32,000 nucleotides of DNA, from assembly GCF_003667345.1 (NCBI RefSeq), contig NZ_RCWF01000011.1:17951-49950 (forward strand), in the 5' to 3' direction. Source of the DNA: Poseidonibacter antarcticus (lineage in GTDB: Bacteria > Campylobacterota > Campylobacteria > Campylobacterales > Arcobacteraceae). Under the pieces are notes generated by a model. The model searched no databases and had not been told where the DNA came from. It saw only the letters and a program-made list of their open reading frames with translations. The translations under genes and the position numbers were made by a program. The stretch's first letter is position 1. Every line of letters begins with the position of its first letter. Positions 4,890 to 32,000 of the stretch are shown piece by piece.

Positions 4890-5178
4890 ATTTTAAGCCT
4901 TTTTATTAATAAAATTATAACTATTTTATACTATATTCCCTATTATTAAACTATAGTATTTTAATCAACTATTATATTTTAAGAAATTTATCAATAAATT
5001 TTGAAATTCTTTTTATCTTTATTACTTCTGAAATAAAAAATTATTCTTTATCTAAAAGTTACCATTATATAGGATTTATATACAATTATTTACTTGAAAA
5101 TGATTTAATAAATTAAACTATAATTCTTAATTACAAGTATTTTAATATAGATTATTCTATTAATTTTGATAAAATCAC

Positions 5179-8894: not shown

Positions 8895-9809
8895 ATGGAA
8901 ATAAGTCAAGATAGATTAACGCATTTAAAACAGCTAGAAGCAGAATCAATGCACATAATGAAAGAAGTAGTAGCAGAGTTTCAAAACCCTGGTATGCTTT
9001 ATAGTGTAGGGAAAGATTCATCTGTAATGCTACATATTTTACAAAAAGCATTTTACCCAGCACCACCACCATTACCTTTAATGCATGTAGATACAAAATG
9101 GAAATTCAAAGAAATGATTGAATTTAGAGATAAACGTGCAAAAGAAGTAGGAATGGAATTAATTGTTTACTCAAATCCAAAAGGAATTGAGATGAATATT
9201 TCTCCATTTGAACATGGAAGCTCAGTACATACAGATATTATGAAAACTGAGGGATTAAAAAATGCTTTAAATATCCATAAGTTTGATGCAGTATTTGGTG
9301 GAGCCCGACGTGATGAAGAAAAATCAAGAGCAAAAGAGAGAATTTATTCTTTTAGAGATAAAAACCATAGATGGGATCCAAAAAACCAAAGACCAGAACT
9401 TTGGAATATTTATAATGGAAGACATACTAAAGGTGAATCAATTAGAGTATTCCCATTATCTAACTGGACAGAATTAGATATTTGGCAATATATTTATCTT
9501 GAAAATATTTCTATTCCTGATTTATACTTCTCAAAAGAGCGTGAAGTAGTAGATTATATGGGTGCAAAAATCATGGTAGATGATGAAAGAATGCCTGAAG
9601 AACTTAGAAAAACAGCAAAAAAAGAAAAAGTAAGATTTAGAACACTTGGGTGTTATCCACTAACTGGTGCAGTTGAAAGTGAAGCTACAACATTACCTGA
9701 GATTATTCAAGAAATGCTTGTTTGTACAACAAGTGAAAGACAAGGTAGATTAATTGACTCTGATGGTGATGCATCAATGGAGAAAAAGAAACAAGAAGGG
9801 TATTTTTAA
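8895..9809 (+). CDS. cysD: sulfate adenylyltransferase subunit 2
   Basis: [18 protein letters not shown]...[13 protein letters not shown] (PP-loop) ...[16 protein letters not shown]...; I chose ATG 8895 with an AAGAAAGG RBS, since the longer ORF start at 8826 lies inside cysH. Confidence 0.9.
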
Positions 9810-9810
9810 G

Positions 9811-11265
9811 ATGGCACATCAATCAGATTTAATAGAAAAAGATATAGAACAATATTTACACGAACATGAGAATAAAGAAATATGTAGATTTATCACATGT
9901 GGTAGTGTAGATGATGGTAAAAGTACTTTAATTGGTAGACTACTTTATGATTCAAAAATGATTTTTGAAGATCAATTAGCAGCTATTGAACAAGATAGTA
10001 AGAAAAGTGGAACTACTGGTGATAAAATAGATTTAGCACTTTTAGTTGATGGTCTTGCAAGTGAAAGAGAACAAGGTATTACTATTGATGTAGCTTATAG
10101 ATTCTTCTCAACTGAGCGAAGAAAGTTTATCATAGCAGATACTCCAGGTCATGAACAATATACTAGAAATATGGCAACAGGTGCTAGTACTGCTGATATT
10201 GCTATTATTTTAATAGATGCAAGACAAGGTATTTTAACTCAAACTAAAAGACACTCTTATATTGCTTCATTATTAGGTATTAAAAACTTAGTAGTTGCTA
10301 TTAATAAAATGGATTTAGTTGATTTTTCACAAGAAGTATTTGAAAGTATTAAAGAAGATTATAAAAAGATTATTCCAAATCTTCCACATAATGAAGACTT
10401 AAATATTGAATTTATTCCTATTTCTGCATTAGATGGAGATAATATTTTAACAAATTCACCAAAAGCACCTTGGTATACAGATAAACCTTTAATGGAATTA
10501 CTAGATACTATTGATATTCATAAAGTAGCATCTAATTCATTTAGATTACCTGTTCAATATGTAATAAGACCACACTTAAACTTTAGAGGATTCTCTGGAA
10601 CAATTGCGAGTGGTTCAATTCAAGTTGGTGATGAAATTACAGTATTACCTTCAAGAAAAACATCTAAAGTAAAATCAATAGTATCAAATGATATTAAAGA
10701 TTTAAGACCAATTGGAAAAGATGAAACAGTAGAAACAATACCTAGAGCATTTGCACCAATGGCAACAACAATTACACTTGAAGATGAAATAGATATTTCA
10801 AGAGGTGATATGATTGTAAAATCAACTGATATTCCTAAAGTATCAAATCACTTATCAGCAATGATTGTATGGATGGATGAAACACCATTAGCTTTAAATC
10901 AAAACTATGTGATTAAAAGAGCAACATCTGTAATAAATGGATCATTTAATTCAATCGAATTTAAAAAGAATATTAATACATTTGAAGAAGTAAATGCAAC
11001 TACATTAGAATTAAATGATATAGCAAAATGTACTCTTTCTTTAGATAGAGAAATTGCAATAGATGCATATCATAAAAATAGATATACAGGAAGTTTTATA
11101 ATAATAGATAAATATACAAACTCAACTGTTGGTGCTGGTATGATTGTATCTTCAAATGAATCATCATCAAAAGAGCAAAGTATTAAAGAGTATACAAAAG
11201 CTGAGATTGAATTAAATCAATATATTAGAAACAATTATCCACAATGGAATTGTAAGGCGATATAA
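9811..11265 (+). CDS. cysN: sulfate adenylyltransferase subunit 1 (GTPase), no fused APS-kinase domain
   Basis: GSVDDGKST (G1), DTPGHEQY (G3), NKMD (G4); the ATG lies 1 nt after the cysD stop; ~484 aa, so no CysC domain. Confidence 0.9.
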   Translation: MAHQSDLIEKDIEQYLHEHENKEICRFITCGSVDDGKSTLIGRLLYDSKMIFEDQLAAIEQDSKKSGTTGDKIDLALLVDGLASEREQGITIDVAYRFFSTERRKFIIADTPGHEQYTRNMATGASTADIAIILIDARQGILTQTKRHSYIASLLGIKNLVVAINKMDLVDFSQEVFESIKEDYKKIIPNLPHNEDLNIEFIPISALDGDNILTNSPKAPWYTDKPLMELLDTIDIHKVASNSFRLPVQYVIRPHLNFRGFSGTIASGSIQVGDEITVLPSRKTSKVKSIVSNDIKDLRPIGKDETVETIPRAFAPMATTITLEDEIDISRGDMIVKSTDIPKVSNHLSAMIVWMDETPLALNQNYVIKRATSVINGSFNSIEFKKNINTFEEVNATTLELNDIAKCTLSLDREIAIDAYHKNRYTGSFIIIDKYTNSTVGAGMIVSSNESSSKEQSIKEYTKAEIELNQYIRNNYPQWNCKAI

Positions 11266-12450: not shown

Positions 12451-13764
12451 ATGAGTAAAATAATGAATAATAAAATCTTTAAACCATTTCTAAACGAAAA
12501 TACAGATACCCTTAATTTTATAAGATACAACACAATTGGAAAAAATAAAAAAGAGTATTTTGATTATACTGCAACAGGTTTAGCCTTTAGACAAATAGAA
12601 AATAGAATTCATAATGTATTAGAAACTTATGCAAATACACACTCAAAAGAAGCTTCTAATGCTGATACTACAAGTAGTTATTATGAAATGGCAAGAGCTA
12701 AGCTAGCAAAAAACTTAGAAATTGATGAAAACTTTGCAATACTTCCTAATGGTTGTGGAACAACTGCTGCTATTAAACATTTTCAAGAGCTTTTAGGGCT
12801 ATATATACCACCTGCAACAAAAAAAAGATATAGTATTGAAGTTGATAAATCAAAGCTCCCCTTGGTCATTGTAGGACCTTATGAACATCATTCAAATGAA
12901 GTTTCTTTTAGAGAAGCATTATGTGAAATACAAAGAATAAATTTAAGCCAAAATGGCTTAATAGATTTAGAACATTTAAAAGAAGTCTTAGAAAAAAATA
13001 AACATAGAGAAATAATAGCTTCTTTTTGTATAGCCTCAAATGTTACAGGAATTATTACAAAATATGAAGAGATTTCAAAAATCTTACGAAAATATAATGC
13101 TATAGTTTGCTTTGATGCAGCAGCTTCATCTCCATATATAAATATTCCATCTCATCTTTATGATGCTATGTTTATGTCACCTCATAAGCTATTAGGTGGT
13201 CCTGGTTCATGTGGACTTTTAATAATTAGAAAATCCTTAGTTGATACCAATTTATCTCCAAGTTTTGCAGGTGGTGGAACAGTACAATATGTAAATAAAA
13301 AACATCAAATTTACGAAAAAGATATTCAAACAAGAGAAGATGCAGGAACACCTGGTATTTTGCAATTAATACGAGCAAGCTTAGCATATCAGTTAAGAAA
13401 TGAAATTGGTTTTGATTTTATAGCCAAAAGAAAAAAGATATTAAAAAAGATATTTTTAAATGGACTTTTAGAAATTCCTAATTGTAAAATTTATGGGAAT
13501 GCAAATGAAGATAATATTGGAATAATTTCTTTTAATATTGAAAATATAGACCCATATGAACTATGTTCTAAATTATCAAAATCAAAAGGTTTTCAAACAA
13601 GAGCAGGATGCTCATGTGCTGGACCTTATGGTCATGATTTACTAGGAATTGAAGAGTTAGATTTAGAGAATAAACCAGGATGGATTAGAGTTTCTATACA
13701 CTTCTCACAAACAAAAGAAGAAATTTTAGAACTAATCAAATCTATTAAGAGTATTGTTAACTAA
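12451..13764 (+). CDS. aminotransferase class V-fold PLP enzyme (cysteine desulfurase/selenocysteine lyase-like)
   Basis: ANTHSKEASNAD, FDAAASSPY and SPHKLLGGPGSCG (PLP lysine) blocks; C-terminal RAGCSCAGPYGH. Confidence 0.75.
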   Translation: MSKIMNNKIFKPFLNENTDTLNFIRYNTIGKNKKEYFDYTATGLAFRQIENRIHNVLETYANTHSKEASNADTTSSYYEMARAKLAKNLEIDENFAILPNGCGTTAAIKHFQELLGLYIPPATKKRYSIEVDKSKLPLVIVGPYEHHSNEVSFREALCEIQRINLSQNGLIDLEHLKEVLEKNKHREIIASFCIASNVTGIITKYEEISKILRKYNAIVCFDAAASSPYINIPSHLYDAMFMSPHKLLGGPGSCGLLIIRKSLVDTNLSPSFAGGGTVQYVNKKHQIYEKDIQTREDAGTPGILQLIRASLAYQLRNEIGFDFIAKRKKILKKIFLNGLLEIPNCKIYGNANEDNIGIISFNIENIDPYELCSKLSKSKGFQTRAGCSCAGPYGHDLLGIEELDLENKPGWIRVSIHFSQTKEEILELIKSIKSIVN

Positions 13765-24561: not shown

Positions 24562-24591
24562 ATCTAGTCTATTTTTAGAAATAGGCTAGAT
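24562..24591. terminator. bidirectional hairpin between convergent genes
   Basis: ATCTAGTCTAT-(8 nt)-ATAGGCTAGAT, an 11-bp stem with one G-U position. Confidence 0.5.
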
Positions 24592-25169
24592 TAAGCTAAA
24601 AGCTTAACAAATGCCTCAATAATAGCTATACTTTCAAGCTCTTTGATTCTGTTTTCTAAAGAATCAACACTTTCACCATTATTTATTTTAAGCTCTTTTT
24701 TTAAAATGATTCTACCATCATCATATTTCTCATTTACAAAATGAATCGTAACACCTGATTTAGGCTCGTTATTTTTAATAATTGCTTCATGTACAAATCT
24801 TCCATACATTCCTTTGCCTCCATAAATTGAAGGTAAAAGTGCAGGATGTGTATTTACTATTCTTTCAGGAAACTGTGATATTAAAATAGTTCCAATCATT
24901 TTCATATAACCAGAACAGAATATATAATCACAGTTAAACTCTTTTAATAAATTTGATATTTTTTCATCAATATTTTCATTAGGGTATTTTTTTTCATTTA
25001 TTACAAAATTAGGTATTTGCATATCATTTGCTATATTTAAAACATTCGCATTACTATTATTGGAAATTACTACAACAACTTGTGCATCTAAAATCTTCTC
25101 TTCTATGGCTTTTTGTATTTTTTGAAAACCACTTCCATTATATGAAGCTAAAATACCTATTCTTTTCAT
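24591..25169 (-). CDS. purN: phosphoribosylglycinamide formyltransferase
   Basis: MKRIGILASYNGSG, INTHPALLP and SGVTIHFVNEKYDDG motifs; 192 aa. Confidence 0.88.
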   Translation of the reverse strand: MKRIGILASYNGSGFQKIQKAIEEKILDAQVVVVISNNSNANVLNIANDMQIPNFVINEKKYPNENIDEKISNLLKEFNCDYIFCSGYMKMIGTILISQFPERIVNTHPALLPSIYGGKGMYGRFVHEAIIKNNEPKSGVTIHFVNEKYDDGRIILKKELKINNGESVDSLENRIKELESIAIIEAFVKLLA

Positions 25170-25231: not shown

Positions 25232-26113
25232 TTATTTATCTTTCTTATTAATTAAAAATACACCAAAAAATATAAAAATAGTAGCTATAAAATCTATCAT
25301 CTTAATATCTTCACCAACAATAAAAAACCCAATAATTAGAGCAACAACAGGAGGAATATATGTAATAGAAGAGGCTTTTAATACACCTAGCTTTTCAATC
25401 ATATAATAGTATAAGATATAAGCTAGTCCAGTACCTAAAATACCTAATCCTACAACCAATCCTATAAAACTATGAGTATCTTGCCAAATGTTATTTATAC
25501 CTTTAAAATCTACTATTAAAAATAGAATAATTAAAGCACTTCCTAATTGATAAGTTGTTAAAGCTACTACATTAATTTTTAATGGCATAATAAATTTTTT
25601 AGCATAAACAAAAGAAGAACCAACACTTAATGATGCAATAAGTAAGTATAAAACACCTTCTATATTTGTATTTTCTAAGTTACTTGAAAATACTCCACTT
25701 ATTATTAAAACACCTAGAAATCCTAATAATACACCCAATAAAGCGAGCTTTGTAACTTTTTCTTCTTTTAAAAATATGCTAGCCATTAAAAAAGAAAAAA
25801 GTGGTATCGCCCCACTTAAAGCACCTGCAATTCCAGATAATAATAATGAAGAACCTTTTACATAACCAAAAAAGTAAATAACAGCTGCTAATAAGGACAT
25901 AACAACAAAATGTATTATATATTTTAAATCTTCAAATTTTAAAGCTTTTATATATAAAGCATAAAAAAATACTGGAATAAAACCAAATAAAACTCTATAA
26001 AAAACAACTTGCATAGGTTCAATAAACTCTGCTGCCATCTTCATATAAATAAAATTACTTCCCCAAATAATACCTAAAGACCAAAAAGCTAATATAGGAA
26101 TATATTTCATCAT
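25232..26113 (-). CDS. DMT superfamily (EamA-like) transporter
   Basis: 10-TM pattern in two EamA halves; 293 aa. Confidence 0.8.
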   Translation of the reverse strand: MMKYIPILAFWSLGIIWGSNFIYMKMAAEFIEPMQVVFYRVLFGFIPVFFYALYIKALKFEDLKYIIHFVVMSLLAAVIYFFGYVKGSSLLLSGIAGALSGAIPLFSFLMASIFLKEEKVTKLALLGVLLGFLGVLIISGVFSSNLENTNIEGVLYLLIASLSVGSSFVYAKKFIMPLKINVVALTTYQLGSALIILFLIVDFKGINNIWQDTHSFIGLVVGLGILGTGLAYILYYYMIEKLGVLKASSITYIPPVVALIIGFFIVGEDIKMIDFIATIFIFFGVFLINKKDK

Positions 26114-26115
26114 TA

Positions 26116-26583
26116 TTATCTAATCCTTTGAGAGTGTGTAAGTGCAATTGCAATTGCATCTGTAATATCTAAGGGTTTTATCTCTTTTTTAATTCCAAGT
26201 AATTTTTTTACCATAAAAGCAACTTGAGTTTTATCCGCTTTTCCATTGCCCGTAACTGCTTTTTTAACTTGTAAAGGAGTATATTCAGCAAAATTTCCAA
26301 ATTTTTGTAAAATTTTTAATGATATAGCTCCTCTAAATTGAGCTAACTTAATTACTGTCTTTGGATTAAAGGCATAAAACATATCTTCAATTGAAACTTC
26401 ATTAATAACATGTTTGTCAAAAATAAGATCAAAACCTTCTGTCATTTCCACAATTTGTTCTTGTAAAATTTTTGTTTTTATTTTAATTAAACCAGCTTCA
26501 ATAAGTCTAGTTTGAGAACCATTTTTTTCAATTATTGCATAGCCACAATTTCTTGTTCCAGGGTCAATTCCTAATATTTTCAC
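26116..26583 (-). CDS. ruvC: crossover junction endodeoxyribonuclease RuvC
   Basis: [17 protein letters not shown] and [12 protein letters not shown] catalytic blocks; GTG start at 26583. Confidence 0.92.
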
Positions 26584-26695
26584 GTATATTCACTTTTAAT
26601 TTATTTTTTATTCACATCAGTATAATAGCCATATAATGGTATGTTTTAGATAAATTTTCACTTAATGTGAACAATCTATTCACTACTTATTCACT
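26576..26695. other. DnaA-box cluster (oriC1-like) next to ruvC
   Basis: Seven TTCAC-core 9-mers: ATTTTCACG 26576-84, ATATTCACT 26586-94, TTATTCACA 26608-16, ATTTTCACT 26654-62, TTGTTCACA (minus strand) 26666-74, CTATTCACT 26676-84, TTATTCACT 26687-95. Confidence 0.7.
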
Positions 26696-26757
26696 ATGTG
26701 TAAAACTAGTTCTTATTGAAAATCATAAATATTTTATAACTTATTAATTTACTAGTT

Positions 26758-26780
26758 TTTAAGATTTTTTTTGACATAAT
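26758..26780 (+). promoter_or_regulatory. promoter-like repeat copy 1 (T-tract + TG + CATAAT)
   Basis: TTTAAGATTTTTTTTGACATAAT, near-identical to copy 2 about 73 nt downstream; a TATAAT follows at 26784-26789. Confidence 0.4.
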
Positions 26781-26831
26781 TAGTATAATCTTTATATATT
26801 CATAATTTTATAAATCATTTATTTATTTTAA

Positions 26832-26853
26832 TTTAAGATTTTTTTGACATAAT
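26832..26853 (+). promoter_or_regulatory. promoter-like repeat copy 2, probable promoter of the 79-aa peptide gene
   Basis: TTTAAGATTTTTTTGACATAAT has a T-tract, TG and a -10-like CATAAT, as in Campylobacterota promoters; it lies 45 nt upstream of ATG 26898, followed by hairpin GAGTA-aaattc-TACTC and an AAAGGA RBS. Confidence 0.45.
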
Positions 26854-26897
26854 AACACAGAGTAAAATTCTACTCATAAAAAGTTAAAGGATGTAAA

Positions 26898-27137
26898 ATG
26901 TTAGGAAATCTTTTAGGTGGGTTATTAAGTCCATTATTAAGTGTTGTTTCTGGTTTACTTGGAACTGTTGTTAATTTAGTAAGTGGTATACTTGGTGGTG
27001 CTCTTGGTACTGTTGGTGACCTTGTTGGTGGATTAACTGATACTGTAGCTGACGTTGCAGACACTAATATTAATGTTAATATTGATATCAATGGTGTTCA
27101 ATCTCCTTCAGATGCTGATGTTGGTGGTTTAGCATAA
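26898..27137 (+). CDS. 79-aa glycine/leucine/valine-rich acidic peptide, candidate type I secretion substrate
   Basis: AAAGGA RBS 6 nt upstream; own terminator; 15 Gly, 15 Leu, 12 Val, 7 Asp; no Lys/Arg/His/Glu/Cys/aromatics; directly upstream of the T1SS genes. Confidence 0.6.
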   Translation: MLGNLLGGLLSPLLSVVSGLLGTVVNLVSGILGGALGTVGDLVGGLTDTVADVADTNINVNIDINGVQSPSDADVGGLA

Positions 27138-27140
27138 TTT

Positions 27141-27169
27141 AAAAAGTAAGTCTTAACGACTTACTTTTT
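27141..27169 (+). terminator. rho-independent terminator/attenuator after the peptide gene
   Basis: AAAAAGTAAGTC-ttaac-GACTTACTTTTT, perfect 12-bp complementarity including the A5/T5 flanks, 3 nt after the stop. Confidence 0.8.
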
Positions 27170-27196
27170 AATTGTTACTAAAATACAAGGGAAATT

Positions 27197-28906
27197 TTGT
27201 CACAAAATAAAAATACTTCTGAACTCAAAAGCGTACTCAAACAATCTAAAAAATTATTCTTTACTATAGGCTTATTTAGTTTTTTAATTAATATACTTAT
27301 GTTAGTACCTCCCATTTATATGCTTCAAATATACGATAGAGTTCTTTCAAGTAAGAGTAAAGATACACTTTTCATGTTAACACTTATTGTTGTAGTATTA
27401 TTTATTACAATGGCTTTATTAGAAATTATTAGATCAAAAATATTAATAAAAATTGGTAATAGAATTGATAATAATTTAAGTAATAGAATATTTGATTCTC
27501 TATTTCAATTAGAAAAAGTAAATCCTAATAAGGCTAGTTCTTCATATATAAGTAATTTAACTCAAATGAGACAATTTTTAACAGGTAGTGGTGTATTTGC
27601 ATTTTTTGATGCCCCATGGATTACAATTTATTTATTAATTCTTTTTTTATTCCATCCTATGTTCGGATATTTCGCACTATTTACAATATTTATTTTATTA
27701 ATAATCACCTTAGTAAATGAAATTACTACAAAACAAAAAATAAATATAGCAACAGTAGATAATCTTTCTTCAAATAATTATCTAGATTCTTCTTTAAAAA
27801 ATGCAGATGTTGTCAATACAATGGGAATGAAAAAAGATATTAAATACATATGGCAAAAAAAATATTATAGTTTTTTAAGAGCACAAAATGATGCAAGTGA
27901 TAGTGCTAGTGTTTGGACTAATCTTTCAAAAAATTTTAGATTATTAGCTCAATCTTTAATCCTAGGACTAGGTGCTTATCTTGCAATTGATCAAGAAATA
28001 ACTCCAGGTATGATGATAGCAGCATCTATAATATTAGGAAGAACCTTAGCACCACTTGATTTAATCATATCAAGTTGGAGACACTTTATTACTTATCGTT
28101 CTAGTTATAAAAGAATTGAATCTTTATTGCATGACTTTCCAAAAAAAGAGCAATTGACATCAATTCCTATTACAAAAGCAGAACTATTATTAGAAAATAT
28201 GGTACTTACTCCTCCTTTAGGTGATGCCCCAACAATAAAAGGTATATCTTTACAAATTAATGAAGGTGATGTTGTTGCAATTATTGGTAATAGTGGAGCA
28301 GGAAAATCAACTTTAGTAAAAGGTATTCTTGATATATGGCCTATTTCTGAAGGTAAAGTTAAAATTGATAATATAGATATACAATTATTAAATAAAGAAG
28401 AAATTGGCTCAAGTATTGGGTATCTTCCACAAGATATAGAACTTTTTGAAGGTACAATTAGTCAAAATATTTCAAGATTTAAAGAATTAAATTCTGATAA
28501 AGTTATTAAAGCAGCAAAAATTGCTGGTGTCCATGAAATGATAGTAAAATTTCCAAAAGGCTATGATAGTAGTATTGGAAGTGGAGGAACTAAACTTTCA
28601 GGAGGACAAAGACAAAGAATAGGTCTTGCTAGAGCAATTTATAATAATCCACGATTAATTATTTTAGATGAACCAAACTCAAATCTAGATAAAGCAGGAG
28701 AAGAAGCTTTGCTTAATTGTATAAAAGTTTTAAAAGAAAATTTAACAACTGTTTTAATAATTACACATAAAGAAAATATTTTAGAAATTACTAATAAAAT
28801 AGCAATACTTGAAGATGGGACATTAAAAGAATTTAATGAAACAAATATAATATTAAATAATATAGATTTTTTTAATTTAGATGATGGCAACAATGAAAGA
28901 AGTTAA
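27197..28906 (+). CDS. type I secretion system permease/ATPase (PrtD/HasD class, no C39 or CLD N-domain)
   Basis: TTG start. The N-terminus goes straight into the TM region (FSFLINILMLVPPIYMLQIYDRVL). Walker A GNSGAGKST, signature LSGGQRQRIGLARA, Walker B LIILDEPNSNLD. Confidence 0.9.
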   Translation: MSQNKNTSELKSVLKQSKKLFFTIGLFSFLINILMLVPPIYMLQIYDRVLSSKSKDTLFMLTLIVVVLFITMALLEIIRSKILIKIGNRIDNNLSNRIFDSLFQLEKVNPNKASSSYISNLTQMRQFLTGSGVFAFFDAPWITIYLLILFLFHPMFGYFALFTIFILLIITLVNEITTKQKINIATVDNLSSNNYLDSSLKNADVVNTMGMKKDIKYIWQKKYYSFLRAQNDASDSASVWTNLSKNFRLLAQSLILGLGAYLAIDQEITPGMMIAASIILGRTLAPLDLIISSWRHFITYRSSYKRIESLLHDFPKKEQLTSIPITKAELLLENMVLTPPLGDAPTIKGISLQINEGDVVAIIGNSGAGKSTLVKGILDIWPISEGKVKIDNIDIQLLNKEEIGSSIGYLPQDIELFEGTISQNISRFKELNSDKVIKAAKIAGVHEMIVKFPKGYDSSIGSGGTKLSGGQRQRIGLARAIYNNPRLIILDEPNSNLDKAGEEALLNCIKVLKENLTTVLIITHKENILEITNKIAILEDGTLKEFNETNIILNNIDFFNLDDGNNERS

Positions 28907-30185
28907 TAAAGCACCAGATGAGAATGCATCAAAAATAGTTAGATTTGGATTTACTCTTATATTAATTGTTTTTATTTTTTTAGGGGGTTGGATGTCTTAT
29001 GCACCTCTTGCCATCCATTCTGTAGCAATGGGAAAAGTTTCTGCTGATTATAATAAAAAAAGAATTCAACATTTAGAAAGTGGTATTATAAAAAAAATTT
29101 ATGTAAAAGATGGTGATTTAGTAGAAAAAGGACAAATACTTATACAACTTGATGATACACAAATAAAAGCTAAAATTGAATCATTAAAATTTCAATATGA
29201 AAGTATGCTAGCTTTACAATCAAGACTTTTTGCTCAAAAAAATAATAAAAAAGAACTTGTTTTAAATGAAGAAGTTAAGAATAAAAATATTATTAAAGAG
29301 CAAAAATACCTTTTTAAAACTATTACAGAGTCAATTAAAGAAAATAAAAAAGTTATTTCTAAACAAATTTTACAACTCAAAAATCAAATTGCAGGTTTAA
29401 ATTCTACATTAAAAAGTAAAAAATATATGCAAGTATCCATAACAGAAGAGATACGTGAACTTGAAAAATTATATGCAAAAAGATTAATTAACAAGATTAA
29501 TTTAAGAAAATTACAAAGAGAAGAGTCATCATTATTAGGTGAAATCATAAATATTGAAGAAGAAAAAACTAGACTAAAAGAAAAAATAAATGAGTTAAAA
29601 ACTAAAAATGTATTAATTGAAAAAGATTATAAAAAAGATACATTAAAAGAATTAACGACAATATCTCCAAAAATTTCTGAAGTAAGATTAAAAATTGATG
29701 CCCTAGAGGATACCCTAAATAAAACAACTATTTATTCTCCTGCAGATGGGCATATTGTAGGACTTACAAATTATACTCAAGATTCTATAATTAAAGCAGG
29801 TTCAGATATATTAGAAGTAGTTCCAAATGATTCAAATCTTATAATTCTTGCTCAAATAAAATCTACAGATATAGATAAAATTCGAACAGGTTTAACTGCA
29901 AGTATAAAATTCTCAGCATATAATACTCAAAAATCACATTCTATAGATGGAGAAATCACTTATGTTTCTGCTGATAGTTTTATTGACTCAAATACAAATG
30001 AATCTTTTTATGAAGTAAAAGCTAAATTAAGTAAAAAAGGTATTGAACAAATTAAATCTTATAATTTTAATTTAGTAGCTGGTATGCCAGCTGAAATGAT
30101 GATAAAAACAGGAGAAAGAACTGTATTAAGTTATATGCTTAAGCCTCTATTAGATAGGTTTAACAGGAGTTTTAATGAAGAATAA
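28881..30185 (+). CDS. HlyD-family type I secretion membrane fusion protein
   Basis: N-terminal TM, GKVSADYNKKRIQHLESGIIKKIYVKDGDLVEKGQILIQLDD lipoyl-like block, long coiled coil, C-terminal beta-barrel (PADGHIVGL...GMPAEMMIKTGERTVLSYMLKPL). Overlaps the ABC gene; the start could be 28893. Confidence 0.88.
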   Translation: MMATMKEVNKAPDENASKIVRFGFTLILIVFIFLGGWMSYAPLAIHSVAMGKVSADYNKKRIQHLESGIIKKIYVKDGDLVEKGQILIQLDDTQIKAKIESLKFQYESMLALQSRLFAQKNNKKELVLNEEVKNKNIIKEQKYLFKTITESIKENKKVISKQILQLKNQIAGLNSTLKSKKYMQVSITEEIRELEKLYAKRLINKINLRKLQREESSLLGEIINIEEEKTRLKEKINELKTKNVLIEKDYKKDTLKELTTISPKISEVRLKIDALEDTLNKTTIYSPADGHIVGLTNYTQDSIIKAGSDILEVVPNDSNLIILAQIKSTDIDKIRTGLTASIKFSAYNTQKSHSIDGEITYVSADSFIDSNTNESFYEVKAKLSKKGIEQIKSYNFNLVAGMPAEMMIKTGERTVLSYMLKPLLDRFNRSFNEE

Positions 30186-31497
30186 TTTTTTAATTTTATT
30201 CTCAATTTTTTTTATTCATTTAAACTTATATAGTAGCGAAACTTTAACTTTTTCTAAAGCATATAGCCTTTCTTTAAAAAATTCTGAAAAAGTAAAGTCT
30301 TTAGATTATAAATTAAAAGCAAGTTATGAAAATATTGTTCAAGCTAAATCGAAAAGATATCCTGAAATAAATCTTTATTCATCATATACTCAAAATGATT
30401 ATAAATTTGTAAATAAATCAATTAAACAAATGAAACAAAAAGTTAGAGATTATAGTGTTATATTACAACAACCTATTTTTGACAAAACAATTAATTCTCA
30501 AGTAAAGGTTGAAAACTCCAAATTCAAATCCCTTAATGCTGAAATAAAGGGAATGAAACAAGATTTGGCAAATGATATATTAAAAATTTACCTTTCACTA
30601 ATTGAATCTAAAAATAAAATAAAAATGTTATTGCTTTATAAACAAAACCTTAAATACAAAATAGATTTATTAGAAGAACAATATTCAATGAATTTATCTA
30701 CTCAAACTGAAGTTTTAGAAATAAAAATTGAATTAAATCAAGTAAATGTAGATTTAGAGAAAGAAAAACTTTTATATAAAGTAAATAAAAAAAAATTACA
30801 AACTTTAATGGGTGATAATCGAAATTTTAGAGTTCCTGATTTAAATAATTTAGAATATATATCAAATAATTTAGTAAAATTAAAAAAAATAGTAAATACA
30901 AACAATGAAATTTATTCAAATTTACAAATAAAAAAATTAATGAATATTGTTAAAATGTATAAATATCAAGTCAAGAGAAATAGATACAACCATTTACCAA
31001 AAATTAATTTAAGTCTAGAATATACAAAAAATGTTGCTGTAGATAATAATTTAAGTTTTGATTCTTCATTTGATGAAGATAAAGAAATAGGTTTAAATAT
31101 TGTTATACCCCTATTTAAAGGTGGTTATTATGATTCTTTAACAACTGCTTCAAAATTAAATGTAAAAGCATCACAAAAAGAATTAAATAGTTTAATAAAT
31201 CAATTAAAATCAGAATATAAAGAAAATAAAACAACATTATTATGGACTATTAAATCAGTAAAATTATATACAGAATCTTTAGAAACAGCTATTTTATCAA
31301 AAGATAGTATTCAAAAAGAATATAAATATGGTGTAAAGAGTATAATAGATTTATATGATGCAAAATATAAAATATTTAAAATAAAAGAGGAATATATTAA
31401 AAATATATTTACTTTAGTAGACACATATTTATCATTATTAATCCTAACAAATAATTTTGAAGATCTAAAATCTATAGATCTAATCTTAAAAGATTAA
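30175..31497 (+). CDS. TolC-family outer membrane channel
   Basis: Signal peptide, two OEP repeats (LTFSKAYSLSLKNSEKVKSL..., ...IIDLYDAKYKIFKIKEEYI); CAGGAG RBS; overlaps the HlyD gene by 11 nt. Confidence 0.8.
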   Translation: MKNNFLILFSIFFIHLNLYSSETLTFSKAYSLSLKNSEKVKSLDYKLKASYENIVQAKSKRYPEINLYSSYTQNDYKFVNKSIKQMKQKVRDYSVILQQPIFDKTINSQVKVENSKFKSLNAEIKGMKQDLANDILKIYLSLIESKNKIKMLLLYKQNLKYKIDLLEEQYSMNLSTQTEVLEIKIELNQVNVDLEKEKLLYKVNKKKLQTLMGDNRNFRVPDLNNLEYISNNLVKLKKIVNTNNEIYSNLQIKKLMNIVKMYKYQVKRNRYNHLPKINLSLEYTKNVAVDNNLSFDSSFDEDKEIGLNIVIPLFKGGYYDSLTTASKLNVKASQKELNSLINQLKSEYKENKTTLLWTIKSVKLYTESLETAILSKDSIQKEYKYGVKSIIDLYDAKYKIFKIKEEYIKNIFTLVDTYLSLLILTNNFEDLKSIDLILKD

Positions 31498-31514
31498 ATC
31501 AATTAAAAACTAGC

Positions 31515-31546
31515 TTATATCTAAATTTATAATTAATTAGATATAA
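31515..31546. repeat. perfect 10-bp inverted repeat between the TolC-like gene and dnaA
   Basis: TTATATCTAA-(12 nt)-TTAGATATAA; the right arm overlaps a TATAAT at 31542-31547 that could be the dnaA -10. Confidence 0.5.
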
Positions 31547-31582
31547 TATTTACTATTTATAAATAAAAAGAGTTAATAGTAT

Positions 31583-32000
31583 ATGACAAGTAAAGATTTC
31601 CTAACAATTATTCAAAAAGAGGCTACATCTATTGATTTCGATAGATATCTAAAGCAACTTGTGTATAAAAAGATATCATCTGATAATAATATTGCTATTT
31701 TTGAAGTTTCAAATAAATATATTGCTTCATGGATTAAAAGTAAGTATACAGGTGTAATACAACACTGTTTTGAAATATATGATGGAACAAAACCGACAAT
31801 TGAGATAAAAATTGCTGGTGAAAAAAAATCAAAAAGAGAGATTATTAAAGAACAAATTGAAAATAAAACTGCAGAAAGTACAATATTAAATCCATCATAT
31901 ACATTTGATTCATTTATTGTTGGACCTTCTAATCAAATGGCCTATAATGCCTCATTAGCAGTATCTAATAAACCAGGAATTCAATATAATCCTTTATTTA
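31583..32000 (+). CDS. dnaA: chromosomal replication initiator DnaA, N-terminal part (runs off the window)
   Basis: My translation from ATG 31583 is [26 protein letters not shown]...[37 protein letters not shown], the domain I/II and start of the AAA+ domain signature (YTFDxFVxGxSN...YNPLF). Confidence 0.9.

Follow-up and report, generated by a model that had tools for sequence, protein, structure and literature searches.

The 32,000-nucleotide stretch of Poseidonibacter antarcticus DNA analysed here (the window, which ends inside dnaA) carries, between ruvC and dnaA in the origin region, a 4.8-kb segment holding a four-gene operon for a small peptide and a predicted type I secretion system (T1SS). 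In our interpretation, to which we assign a probability of roughly 0.7, this segment, hereafter the cassette, is an old, site-locked presence/absence polymorphism that has been exchanged by homologous recombination through its conserved flanks. As read from the sequence, the arrangement is a variant of the known Campylobacterota origin layout; a search of the literature on Arcobacter type I secretion and bacteriocins returned no published description of it. In the window, ruvC and dnaA are not directly adjacent: they are separated by 4,999 bp and four genes. The order dnaA-dnaN-gyrB is intact, as seen in L081, a contig of a near-identical strain that runs past the window through dnaA, dnaN, and gyrB. 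An earlier reading of the letters of the window, the original prediction, had placed a peptide gene and genes for an ATP-binding cassette (ABC) protein, an HlyD protein, and a TolC protein between the DnaA boxes and dnaA, and had seen no integrase or transposase. All four genes lie where it put them, and a domain search of the four cassette open reading frames (ORFs) likewise gave no integrase or transposase.

Related loci were collected by a RuvC scan of a collection holding one genome per species. The scan returned 80 loci, mostly from Arcobacteraceae, whose RuvC proteins are 76-94% identical to that of the window. The source species is absent from this collection, and its closest representatives there are Poseidonibacter-like metagenome-assembled genomes (MAGs), with RuvC identities of 93-94%. 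Using tblastn with the window proteins, both ruvC and dnaA were found in 78 loci. The two genes are 101-325 bp apart in 75 of these 78, including the closest relatives (RuvC 93-94%) and all of the Sulfurospirillum, Sulfurimonas, and Helicobacter outgroups with both genes. As every outgroup with both genes is empty, absence of the cassette is the ancestral condition in the wider group, and at least one insertion has occurred. The view of the cassette as DNA added to a canonical arrangement is thus borne out by the adjacency of ruvC and dnaA in 75 of the 78 relatives. The original prediction had also allowed that all close relatives might carry the same genes between ruvC and dnaA; instead, empty-site alleles exist among them. 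Within the species itself, exact look-ups with the RuvC sequence of the window gave no record that could reveal an empty allele.

The limits of the cassette were drawn by comparing the ruvC-dnaA gap of the window with that of an empty relative, L002, using blastn-short. Homology was found only at offsets 44-119 and 4939-4995, and the cassette-specific DNA is therefore 26703-31521. It stands in place of a poorly conserved spacer of ~103 bp, and no cassette remnants above noise were found in empty alleles in this comparison. On the right, homology with the empty alleles resumes at the proximal promoter, 5' untranslated region (UTR), and ribosome-binding site (RBS) of dnaA, a block with 80-100% column conservation across 69 Arcobacteraceae loci, the set for which column conservation was computed. 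The box array has stayed with ruvC, and the proximal promoter and 5'UTR of dnaA have stayed with dnaA.

Among the 78 loci, the peptide-ABC-HlyD-TolC cassette was present only in L005, an Arcobacteraceae MAG, and in L052 and L055, both Halarcobacter MAGs, at the same site in each. A metagenome scan with the ABC alignment yielded, among the matches listed, a contig of the same species (L084) and a 74%-identical cassette (L085) with ruvC and DnaA boxes just upstream of it. In a protein search, the ABC sequence defined an orthologous group of 561-569 amino acids (aa) with at least 64% identity, including L110 (86%), L116 (83%), L114 (74%), L111 (71%), L115 (69%), and L112 (64%). Below it lies a large group of ~600-aa, ~60%-identical proteins; its members L113 and L117 are SapC-linked T1SS loci beside glycosyltransferase genes and away from the origin. 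Each orthologous contig examined adjoins ruvC, dnaA, or both. The 11 occurrences, from at least eight Arcobacteraceae lineages, are all at the ruvC-dnaA site, and no orthologous cassette was found elsewhere in the RuvC-keyed genome scan, in the ABC scan of metagenomes (among the matches listed), or in the ABC protein search. The idea of a recent insertion specific to this genome had to be given up, as diverged orthologous cassettes occupy the same site in at least eight lineages.

A neighbour-joining tree of RuvC, DnaA, DnaN, and GyrB from 68 loci covers four cassette loci with all four genes (L081, L005, L052, and L055). They fall in three separate clades, and each of these clades has close empty-site relatives. 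For example, the four proteins of L005 share 97.2% identity with those of the empty L008 (Arcobacter sp. YIC-310). The ABC proteins of different lineages are 64-86% identical and the TolC proteins down to about 50%; judged by their divergence, the cassettes are old. Pairwise ABC and RuvC identities are poorly correlated (Spearman 0.18). Specifically, L111 has a Halarcobacter-like RuvC (90-91%) but an ABC protein nearer that of the window group, and in L005 the reverse holds. At the nucleotide level, L005, L052, and L055 agree with their empty siblings as far as the box array, and the agreement returns at the dnaA -10 box. In the stretch separating these blocks, the three share a cassette-type -35 region (AA-ATTTATAnT.AATTAGATATAAT), where the empty siblings have a DnaA box instead, in several of them as a full inverted pair (TTCACATGTGAA or similar). 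These sharp switches between sibling and cassette sequence and the discordance of ABC and RuvC therefore point to exchange between lineages, and not only to descent and loss. We propose that the operon entered the spacer in an ancestor and was then inherited, lost, and passed between lineages. Exchange would have proceeded through a left flank of ruvC and the box array and a right flank of the dnaA promoter and dnaA.

A purely vertical history, in which the operon entered once, early, in an Arcobacteraceae ancestor and was removed by many independent clean deletions with no exchange between lineages, seems unlikely to us. It accords with the ABC identities of window/L081, L005, and L052 (68.5, 65.1, and 74.7%) ranking as the host-core identities do (85.0, 83.4, and 86.0%), with the proportionally small divergence of the close pair L052/L055 in both cassette and host, and with the fully native composition of the cassette. 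However, it needs ~10 or more precise losses that left no remnant. One and the same box-containing spacer recurs in the empty L008, L013, L024, L031, and L001, with its DnaA boxes forming an inverted pair in L024 and L031; it looks ancestral to them, unlike the products of independent deletions. Nor does vertical descent sit well with the discordant RuvC and ABC identities of L111 and L005, or with a dnaA -35 region in L005 that differs from that of its 97%-identical siblings. At the other extreme, a recent transposon-like or site-specific insertion that left an 8-bp target-site duplication, AAAACTAG, is very improbable. The original prediction had pointed to this octamer as a direct repeat around the cassette and a possible insertion scar; the repeat is located as it said, but its occurrence does not exceed chance, none of the other lineages checked has it, and it is not a scar. 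The left copy begins exactly where L002 homology stops (26702), the right copy lies 9 nt before that homology resumes, and a post-hoc test of 30 x 30-nt zones, alone among the tests, gives p ~0.05. Against this, the octamer occurs five times on the plus strand of the window, the two junction zones have five different 8-mers in common, and at least one shared 8-mer is expected by chance: random same-size window pairs gave one in 56% of cases and mononucleotide shuffles in 98%. Flanking copies were not found in L005, L052, or L055, nor by eye in L110 or L085. The cassette lacks a transposase or integrase, and no inverted pair joins its ends in the manner of terminal inverted repeats. Finally, the orthologous cassettes at this site in many lineages have diverged by 14-36% in ABC, which makes the event far too old for an intact 8-bp scar to be expected still in intergenic DNA of 20% GC.

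The comparison of GC content and codon usage that the original prediction had called for did not bear out a foreign origin. In GC content at third codon positions (0.09) and in codon-usage distance, none of the transporter genes (ABC, HlyD, and TolC) falls outside the values of the other window genes, and all three are unremarkable in this setting. The GC content of the TolC gene is low (0.19), and that of another native gene is 0.205. The largest deviation in composition within the cassette is that of the 80-codon peptide gene. Carriage on plasmids was considered and rejected: the best plasmid match was 68.5% identical over 13% of the query and was a generic T1SS. By its composition and gene content, the cassette is not a self-mobile element.

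Several points weigh against our interpretation. The cassette divergence of window/L081, L005, and L052 ranks in the same order as the host divergence, as described above, and the flanking markers are short, so that vertical descent with many losses keeps some probability. Recombination is the likely route of exchange on the evidence of the breakpoints and the discordant identities. The statement that the cassette occurs nowhere else is limited by the genome-collection scan, which was keyed on RuvC and not on ABC, and the metagenome counts hold among the matches listed. As to function, the role of the ruvC-proximal boxes as a sub-origin and the site of firing are assumed here from Arcobacter butzleri. 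The minus-strand genes are more G-skewed than the plus-strand genes, as expected for an origin to the right, with a difference that is not significant (p 0.13-0.21, within the window). Secretion of the peptide is deduced from gene order.

We next consider the DnaA boxes, which the original prediction had correctly set beside ruvC. There are seven TTCAC cores at 26579-26694, on the plus strand at 26579, 26589, 26611, 26657, 26679, and 26690 and on the minus strand at 26667; the first overlaps the GTG start codon of ruvC. The whole 32-kb window contains 59 such cores on both strands, about the level of shuffles. By our arithmetic, seven cores in 116 bp compare with ~0.2 expected and amount to ~30x the background density; the cluster near ruvC is genuine and above background. 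The later cores are at offsets of 6, 28, 74, 84 (minus strand), 96, and 107 from the ruvC start. In empty-site Arcobacteraceae, the offsets are nearly fixed at about 4, 28, 74, 96, and 107, and the boxes are confined to the ruvC-proximal ~110 bp there too; the 75 relatives with adjacent genes have this box layout. The 85 bp before dnaA had been described as free of boxes and treated as anomalous. Indeed, 31498-31582 contains neither TTCAC nor GTGAA, but this is no anomaly: the closest empty relatives (L002, L004, L006, and L032) are without TTCAC in the last ~170 bp before dnaA. The lack of boxes near dnaA is thus shared with empty relatives and was not brought about by the insertion. The register of the array is kept in most cassette-bearing lineages, and the array is therefore still under selection; the exception is L111, in which it has decayed to two TTCAC cores. 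Selection may keep the array either as a sub-origin acting from afar or in a regulatory role, for ruvC or for a rightward promoter. The near-palindromic element within the array, CCATATAATGGTATG, may be a -10 box, a candidate for ruvC (leftward) or for a rightward promoter.

Other features of the ruvC-dnaA interval were noted alongside. In L002, and also in L004, L006, and L032, a ~14-nt RBS context (GTATTAACTCTTT ... AAAGAGTTAATAC) stands at both ends of the intergenic region, inverted at one relative to the other, so that the divergent ruvC and dnaA have a mirrored 5'UTR end in common. The ruvC-side copy in the window is altered and now holds a TTCAC core. In the empty alleles of two clades (L008, L013, L024, L031, L001, L043, L016, L007, and L040), a DnaA box lies over the dnaA -35 and is in several alleles a full inverted pair (TTCACATGTGAA or TTCACnGGTGAA). 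The box or pair looks like an autoregulatory operator. It is missing from the cassette-bearing L005, L052, and L055 and from Poseidonibacter-type empty alleles. The dnaA -10 region of the window also forms the right arm of an AT-rich inverted repeat with 10-bp arms (31515-31546). The same repeat is 12 bp in L110 (10983-11010), where a base change is matched on both arms. A terminator or insulator hairpin over the dnaA -10 box was considered and rejected as an inconsistent feature, which was seen in two lineages only, is broken in L116, and is missing from L005 and L052.

In Helicobacter pylori, the bipartite origin has the order oriC1-dnaA-oriC2, and in A. butzleri, Sulfurimonas denitrificans, and Wolinella succinogenes it has the order ruvC-oriC1-dnaA-oriC2-dnaN (Jaworski et al. 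2016, PMC5043019). For A. butzleri and two further members of the phylum, the same study describes binding of DnaA to a cluster on either side of dnaA, looping of the DNA, and unwinding at the downstream cluster; about one third of the A. butzleri molecules formed loops between the clusters (PMC5043019). Within the class, the order ruvC-dnaA-dnaN-gyrB is described as highly conserved, several Helicobacter species being the exception (PMC5043019, PMC6052347). In L081, the 169-bp dnaA-dnaN region contains GTGAA at 12760 and 12770 and an opposed TTCAC at 12843, followed by a run GCT-CTACTACTGCCACTA, an A/T-rich stretch, and the dnaN RBS. Cassette-bearing and empty genomes hardly differ in this layout, and the cassette genomes therefore have no compensating change. 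Directly after the last dnaA-dnaN box, L081 (12843-12880) and 18 other loci have CTACTACTnCCACTA and then an A/T-rich run; we take the CTACTACTnCCACTA run to resemble a DnaA-trio array.

With the cassette, the two box clusters are ~6.3 kb apart versus ~1.5 kb without it. The origin would tolerate this with its parts left whole, namely the array in its register, the promoter, UTR, and RBS of dnaA, and the dnaA-dnaN sub-origin with its two tail-to-tail box groups. The structural change would be limited to the cluster spacing and to ~4.6 kb more DNA transcribed towards the unwinding site. On this basis, we infer that the origin continues to function with the cassette in place. One element of the original prediction is reversed by these considerations. 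It had the cassette co-directional with replication; if unwinding occurs in dnaA-dnaN as in A. butzleri (PMC5043019), the cassette lies on the left-hand side of the unwinding site and its genes are read towards that site, which sets their transcription head-on against the leftward fork.

Table 1. Features of the ruvC-dnaA interval and its flanks; positions are those of the window.
Feature	Position	Strand	Remarks
purN	24591-25169	-	
EamA transporter	25232-26113	-	
ruvC, 155 aa, GTG start	26116-26583	-	Pfam RuvC, E 2.5e-56
DnaA-box array, oriC1-type	26579-26694	+	7 TTCAC cores, 6 on + and 1 on -
Near-palindromic element CCATATAATGGTATG inside box array	26629-26643		70-90% column conservation, 69 Arcobacteraceae loci
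Non-coding stretch, 314 bp	between ruvC and peptide gene		
Octamer AAAACTAG	26702-26709 (left), 31506-31513 (right)	+	inverted copy CTAGTTTT at 26752-26759; judged chance
Cassette-specific DNA, ~4.8 kb	26703-31521	+	blastn-short against empty L002 gap
Two copies of ~50-nt promoter-like module (ATTTTATAA...TTTAAGATTTTTTTGACATAAT)	26731-26783, 26805-26856	+	73-74 nt apart
79-aa glycine-rich hydrophobic peptide, acidic C-terminal third	26898-27137	+	presumed T1SS cargo
Hairpin and T-run, terminator- or attenuator-like	27139-27171	+	between peptide gene and ABC gene
T1SS ABC permease/ATPase, PrtD type	27197-28906	+	TIGR01842; Pfam ABC_membrane and ABC_tran only
HlyD-family T1SS periplasmic adaptor	28881-30185	+	TIGR01843
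TolC-like outer-membrane factor	30175-31497	+	Pfam OEP, E 1.1e-42
Non-coding DNA, 85 bp	31498-31582		between TolC gene and dnaA
dnaA proximal promoter, 5'UTR, and RBS	31522-31582	+	-10 GATATAAT at 31540-31547; RBS AAAGAGTTAATA
dnaA, 5' part	31583-32000	+	Pfam DnaA_N and Bac_DnaA

The features of the operon are listed in Table 1. Its best sigma-70-like site, a predicted promoter, is in the first of the two modules upstream of the peptide gene (26771-26800, TTGACA-18-TATATT, 11 of 12 consensus matches). The module ends in TTTTTTTGACATAAT, and its second copy in the 99%-identical L084 reads GTGTCATAAT. The hairpin that follows the peptide gene is the only terminator-like site in 26400-32000; the scan of this interval found none between the TolC gene and dnaA. 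An equivalent hairpin follows the peptide gene in six lineages. The alignment scored no compensatory pair, and by eye the inner stems differ yet stay complementary. This layout suggests high expression of the peptide with partial read-through into the transporter genes. The ABC protein scored 703.6 bits on TIGR01842 (cutoff 510.15), with no C39 peptidase domain detected using Pfam and NCBIfam, and the HlyD adaptor scored 328.8 bits on TIGR01843 (cutoff 208.65). The outer-membrane factor scored 126.5 bits on TIGR01844, below the cutoff of 225.15, and is thus a divergent TolC relative.

The 79-aa peptide matched no Pfam or NCBIfam family. Homologous peptides are encoded at the same position in most of the cassette loci read, and an exhaustive phmmer search of 1.84 billion representative proteins returned only two relatives, both from other cassettes. 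A profile of four family members gave six weak matches, all of them betaproteobacterial peptides with a double-glycine leader (MAIQEL...VSGG). Over 41 aa, the peptide of the Halarcobacter locus L052 shares 71% identity with the core that follows the leader in one of them, P0006, and the window peptide matched the betaproteobacterial peptides weakly (E 0.02). The C-terminal third is acidic and partly conserved (..NGVQ/NGVD..), and is compatible with a predicted C-terminal secretion signal. No immunity gene was recognized: 26584-31582 contains no intergenic ORF of at least 40 aa, and its other ORFs are only antisense within genes. The family looks like a microcin-type cargo that may have lost its leader, gained an acidic C-terminal third, and become matched to a leader-independent PrtD-type exporter. 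It may act as a bacteriocin, a signal, or a surface factor. Two further loci bear on cargo diversity. In Azonexus sp. L083 (7493-13274), three tandem small genes of 68-71 aa lie beside genes for HlyD, a C39-peptidase ABC protein, and OEP; one of their products, P0001, which is among the six profile matches, has a double-glycine leader (MAIQEL..VSGG) and a glycine-rich core. The Azonexus peptides are likely class II microcin-like. In L111 (5050-5747), the orthologous transporter (ABC 71%) at the ruvC-proximal site accompanies an unrelated 120-aa cargo with repeated D-x-V-K/IKDG motifs.

Three further readings concern what the split means for the cell. One, compatible with the exchanged polymorphism that we favour and tentatively entertained, is that the split has no consequence for replication, the ruvC-proximal boxes not being a sub-origin and the origin being monopartite in dnaA-dnaN. 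In Campylobacter jejuni, which has a monopartite oriC, the dnaA-dnaN region and two boxes in the 3' end of dnaA sustain minichromosome replication (Jaworski et al. 2018, PMC6052347). No DnaA-mediated looping was seen in this species, and the boxes upstream of dnaA are bound but dispensable (PMC6052347). A monopartite origin also fits the family-wide conservation of the dnaA-dnaN boxes, trio-like run, and AT-rich stretch, the displacement tolerated in at least eight lineages, and the L111 array with its two boxes. Opposed to it are the data from A. butzleri, the nearest studied relative, where DnaA bound both clusters and ~1/3 of the molecules looped (PMC5043019). The register of the array is also exact in most cassette lineages, hence selected, though this selection could be regulatory.

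The other two readings give the site itself a purpose. A position near the origin raises gene dosage as a general principle, and the cassette might have been selected for its place: wired to replication control through the array and a promoter within it, it would be expressed according to DnaA status and origin dosage, and read-through would feed dnaA. No other site has been seen to carry the cassette, the array contains a conserved TATAAT (26632-26637) that is followed by three boxes, most cassette alleles keep the boxes, and no terminator-like site separates the TolC gene from dnaA. Yet duplicated promoter-like modules 70-150 bp beyond the array are available to the peptide gene, dnaA retains a promoter of its own, and the conserved TATAAT may serve ruvC, on the opposite strand. 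Recombination through the conserved flanks would equally explain the site-locking. We consider such wiring improbable. More doubtful still is the fuller version, an "origin passenger", in which the site would be selected for control of secretion by DnaA or replication status and for origin dosage, read-through or head-on transcription would modulate dnaA or initiation, and the peptide would be a leaderless, C-terminally targeted derivative of a double-glycine peptide.

Gene content also varies on the other side of ruvC. The EamA gene (25232-26113) between ruvC and purN is itself variable among loci: a copy 69-73% identical occurs at the same position in L003, L007, L032, L036, L040, L045, L053, L058, and L070, and in most other loci purN directly follows ruvC. 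There is thus gene-content polymorphism on both sides of ruvC. A further locus, L028, is labelled a Sulfurospirillum MAG and has a RuvC 88% identical to that of the window. It has no dnaA within 10 kb of ruvC and no adjoining TTCAC cluster; in place of dnaA (9394-10471) are a small cytochrome-c-like ORF and an ABC ATPase, reflecting a real synteny break or a misassembly.

The cassette touches on the questions why some bacteria split the origin into two DnaA-box clusters and whether the upstream cluster needs to be near dnaA and the unwinding site. Natural allele pairs such as L005 and L008 differ mainly by 4.8 kb in cluster spacing and by the lost adjacency of the array and the dnaA promoter. 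Such alleles, compared for initiation, looping by DnaA, and expression of dnaA, would put the role of the upstream cluster directly to the test, and they amount to a natural test of spacing tolerance in an origin of this kind. The ~4.6 kb of extra transcription towards the unwinding site would be a natural case of head-on transcription beside an origin. A very small unannotated peptide family with a leader-independent T1SS, predicted to export it, is of interest for secretion-signal swapping. If the origin-passenger version were true, a microcin-like secreted peptide would be linked to the cell-cycle initiator.

The arrangement can be compared with several known systems. Genomic islets exchanged by homologous recombination via conserved flanking core genes are known from naturally transformable bacteria. 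The cassette resembles them in its one fixed site, lack of mobility genes, native composition, breakpoints in the flanks, and patchy distribution. It differs in that its site is the origin region and its flanks are a DnaA-box array and the dnaA promoter. The region also resembles the bipartite origins of Campylobacterota: a TTCAC cluster beside ruvC, whose boxes mostly point the same way, as they do in oriC1 of A. butzleri; another cluster, in dnaA-dnaN, in two opposed groups with an AT-rich stretch before dnaN (seen in L081); and the gene order ruvC ... dnaA-dnaN-gyrB. Unlike those origins, the present one, as read from its sequence, has a 4.8-kb four-gene operon parting the upstream cluster from dnaA and its promoter. 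The monopartite oriC of C. jejuni offers a parallel, as sufficiency of dnaA-dnaN would explain why the cassette is tolerated. However, C. jejuni has no operon between ruvC and dnaA, and Arcobacteraceae are nearer to A. butzleri, with its proposed bipartite origin.

The secretion genes compare with the T1SSs of the PrtD/AprD/HasD type, having an ABC protein above the TIGR01842 cutoff and without C39, an HlyD protein above the TIGR01843 cutoff, and an outer-membrane factor in the operon. In many RTX operons, as in the cassette, the cargo gene comes first and a hairpin follows. Unlike the cargo of PrtD-type systems, the presumed cargo is only 79 aa long, lacks RTX (HemolysinCabind) repeats, and belongs to an unannotated family with almost no relatives. 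Finally, the peptide is like class II microcins in its glycine-rich hydrophobic core, which resembles the predicted mature part of the betaproteobacterial double-glycine peptides. It is unlike them in lacking a double-glycine leader, as it starts MLGNLLGG and aligns to the post-leader core; in having an extra acidic C-terminal third; and in being paired with an exporter without the C39 domain that the Azonexus L083 exporter has.

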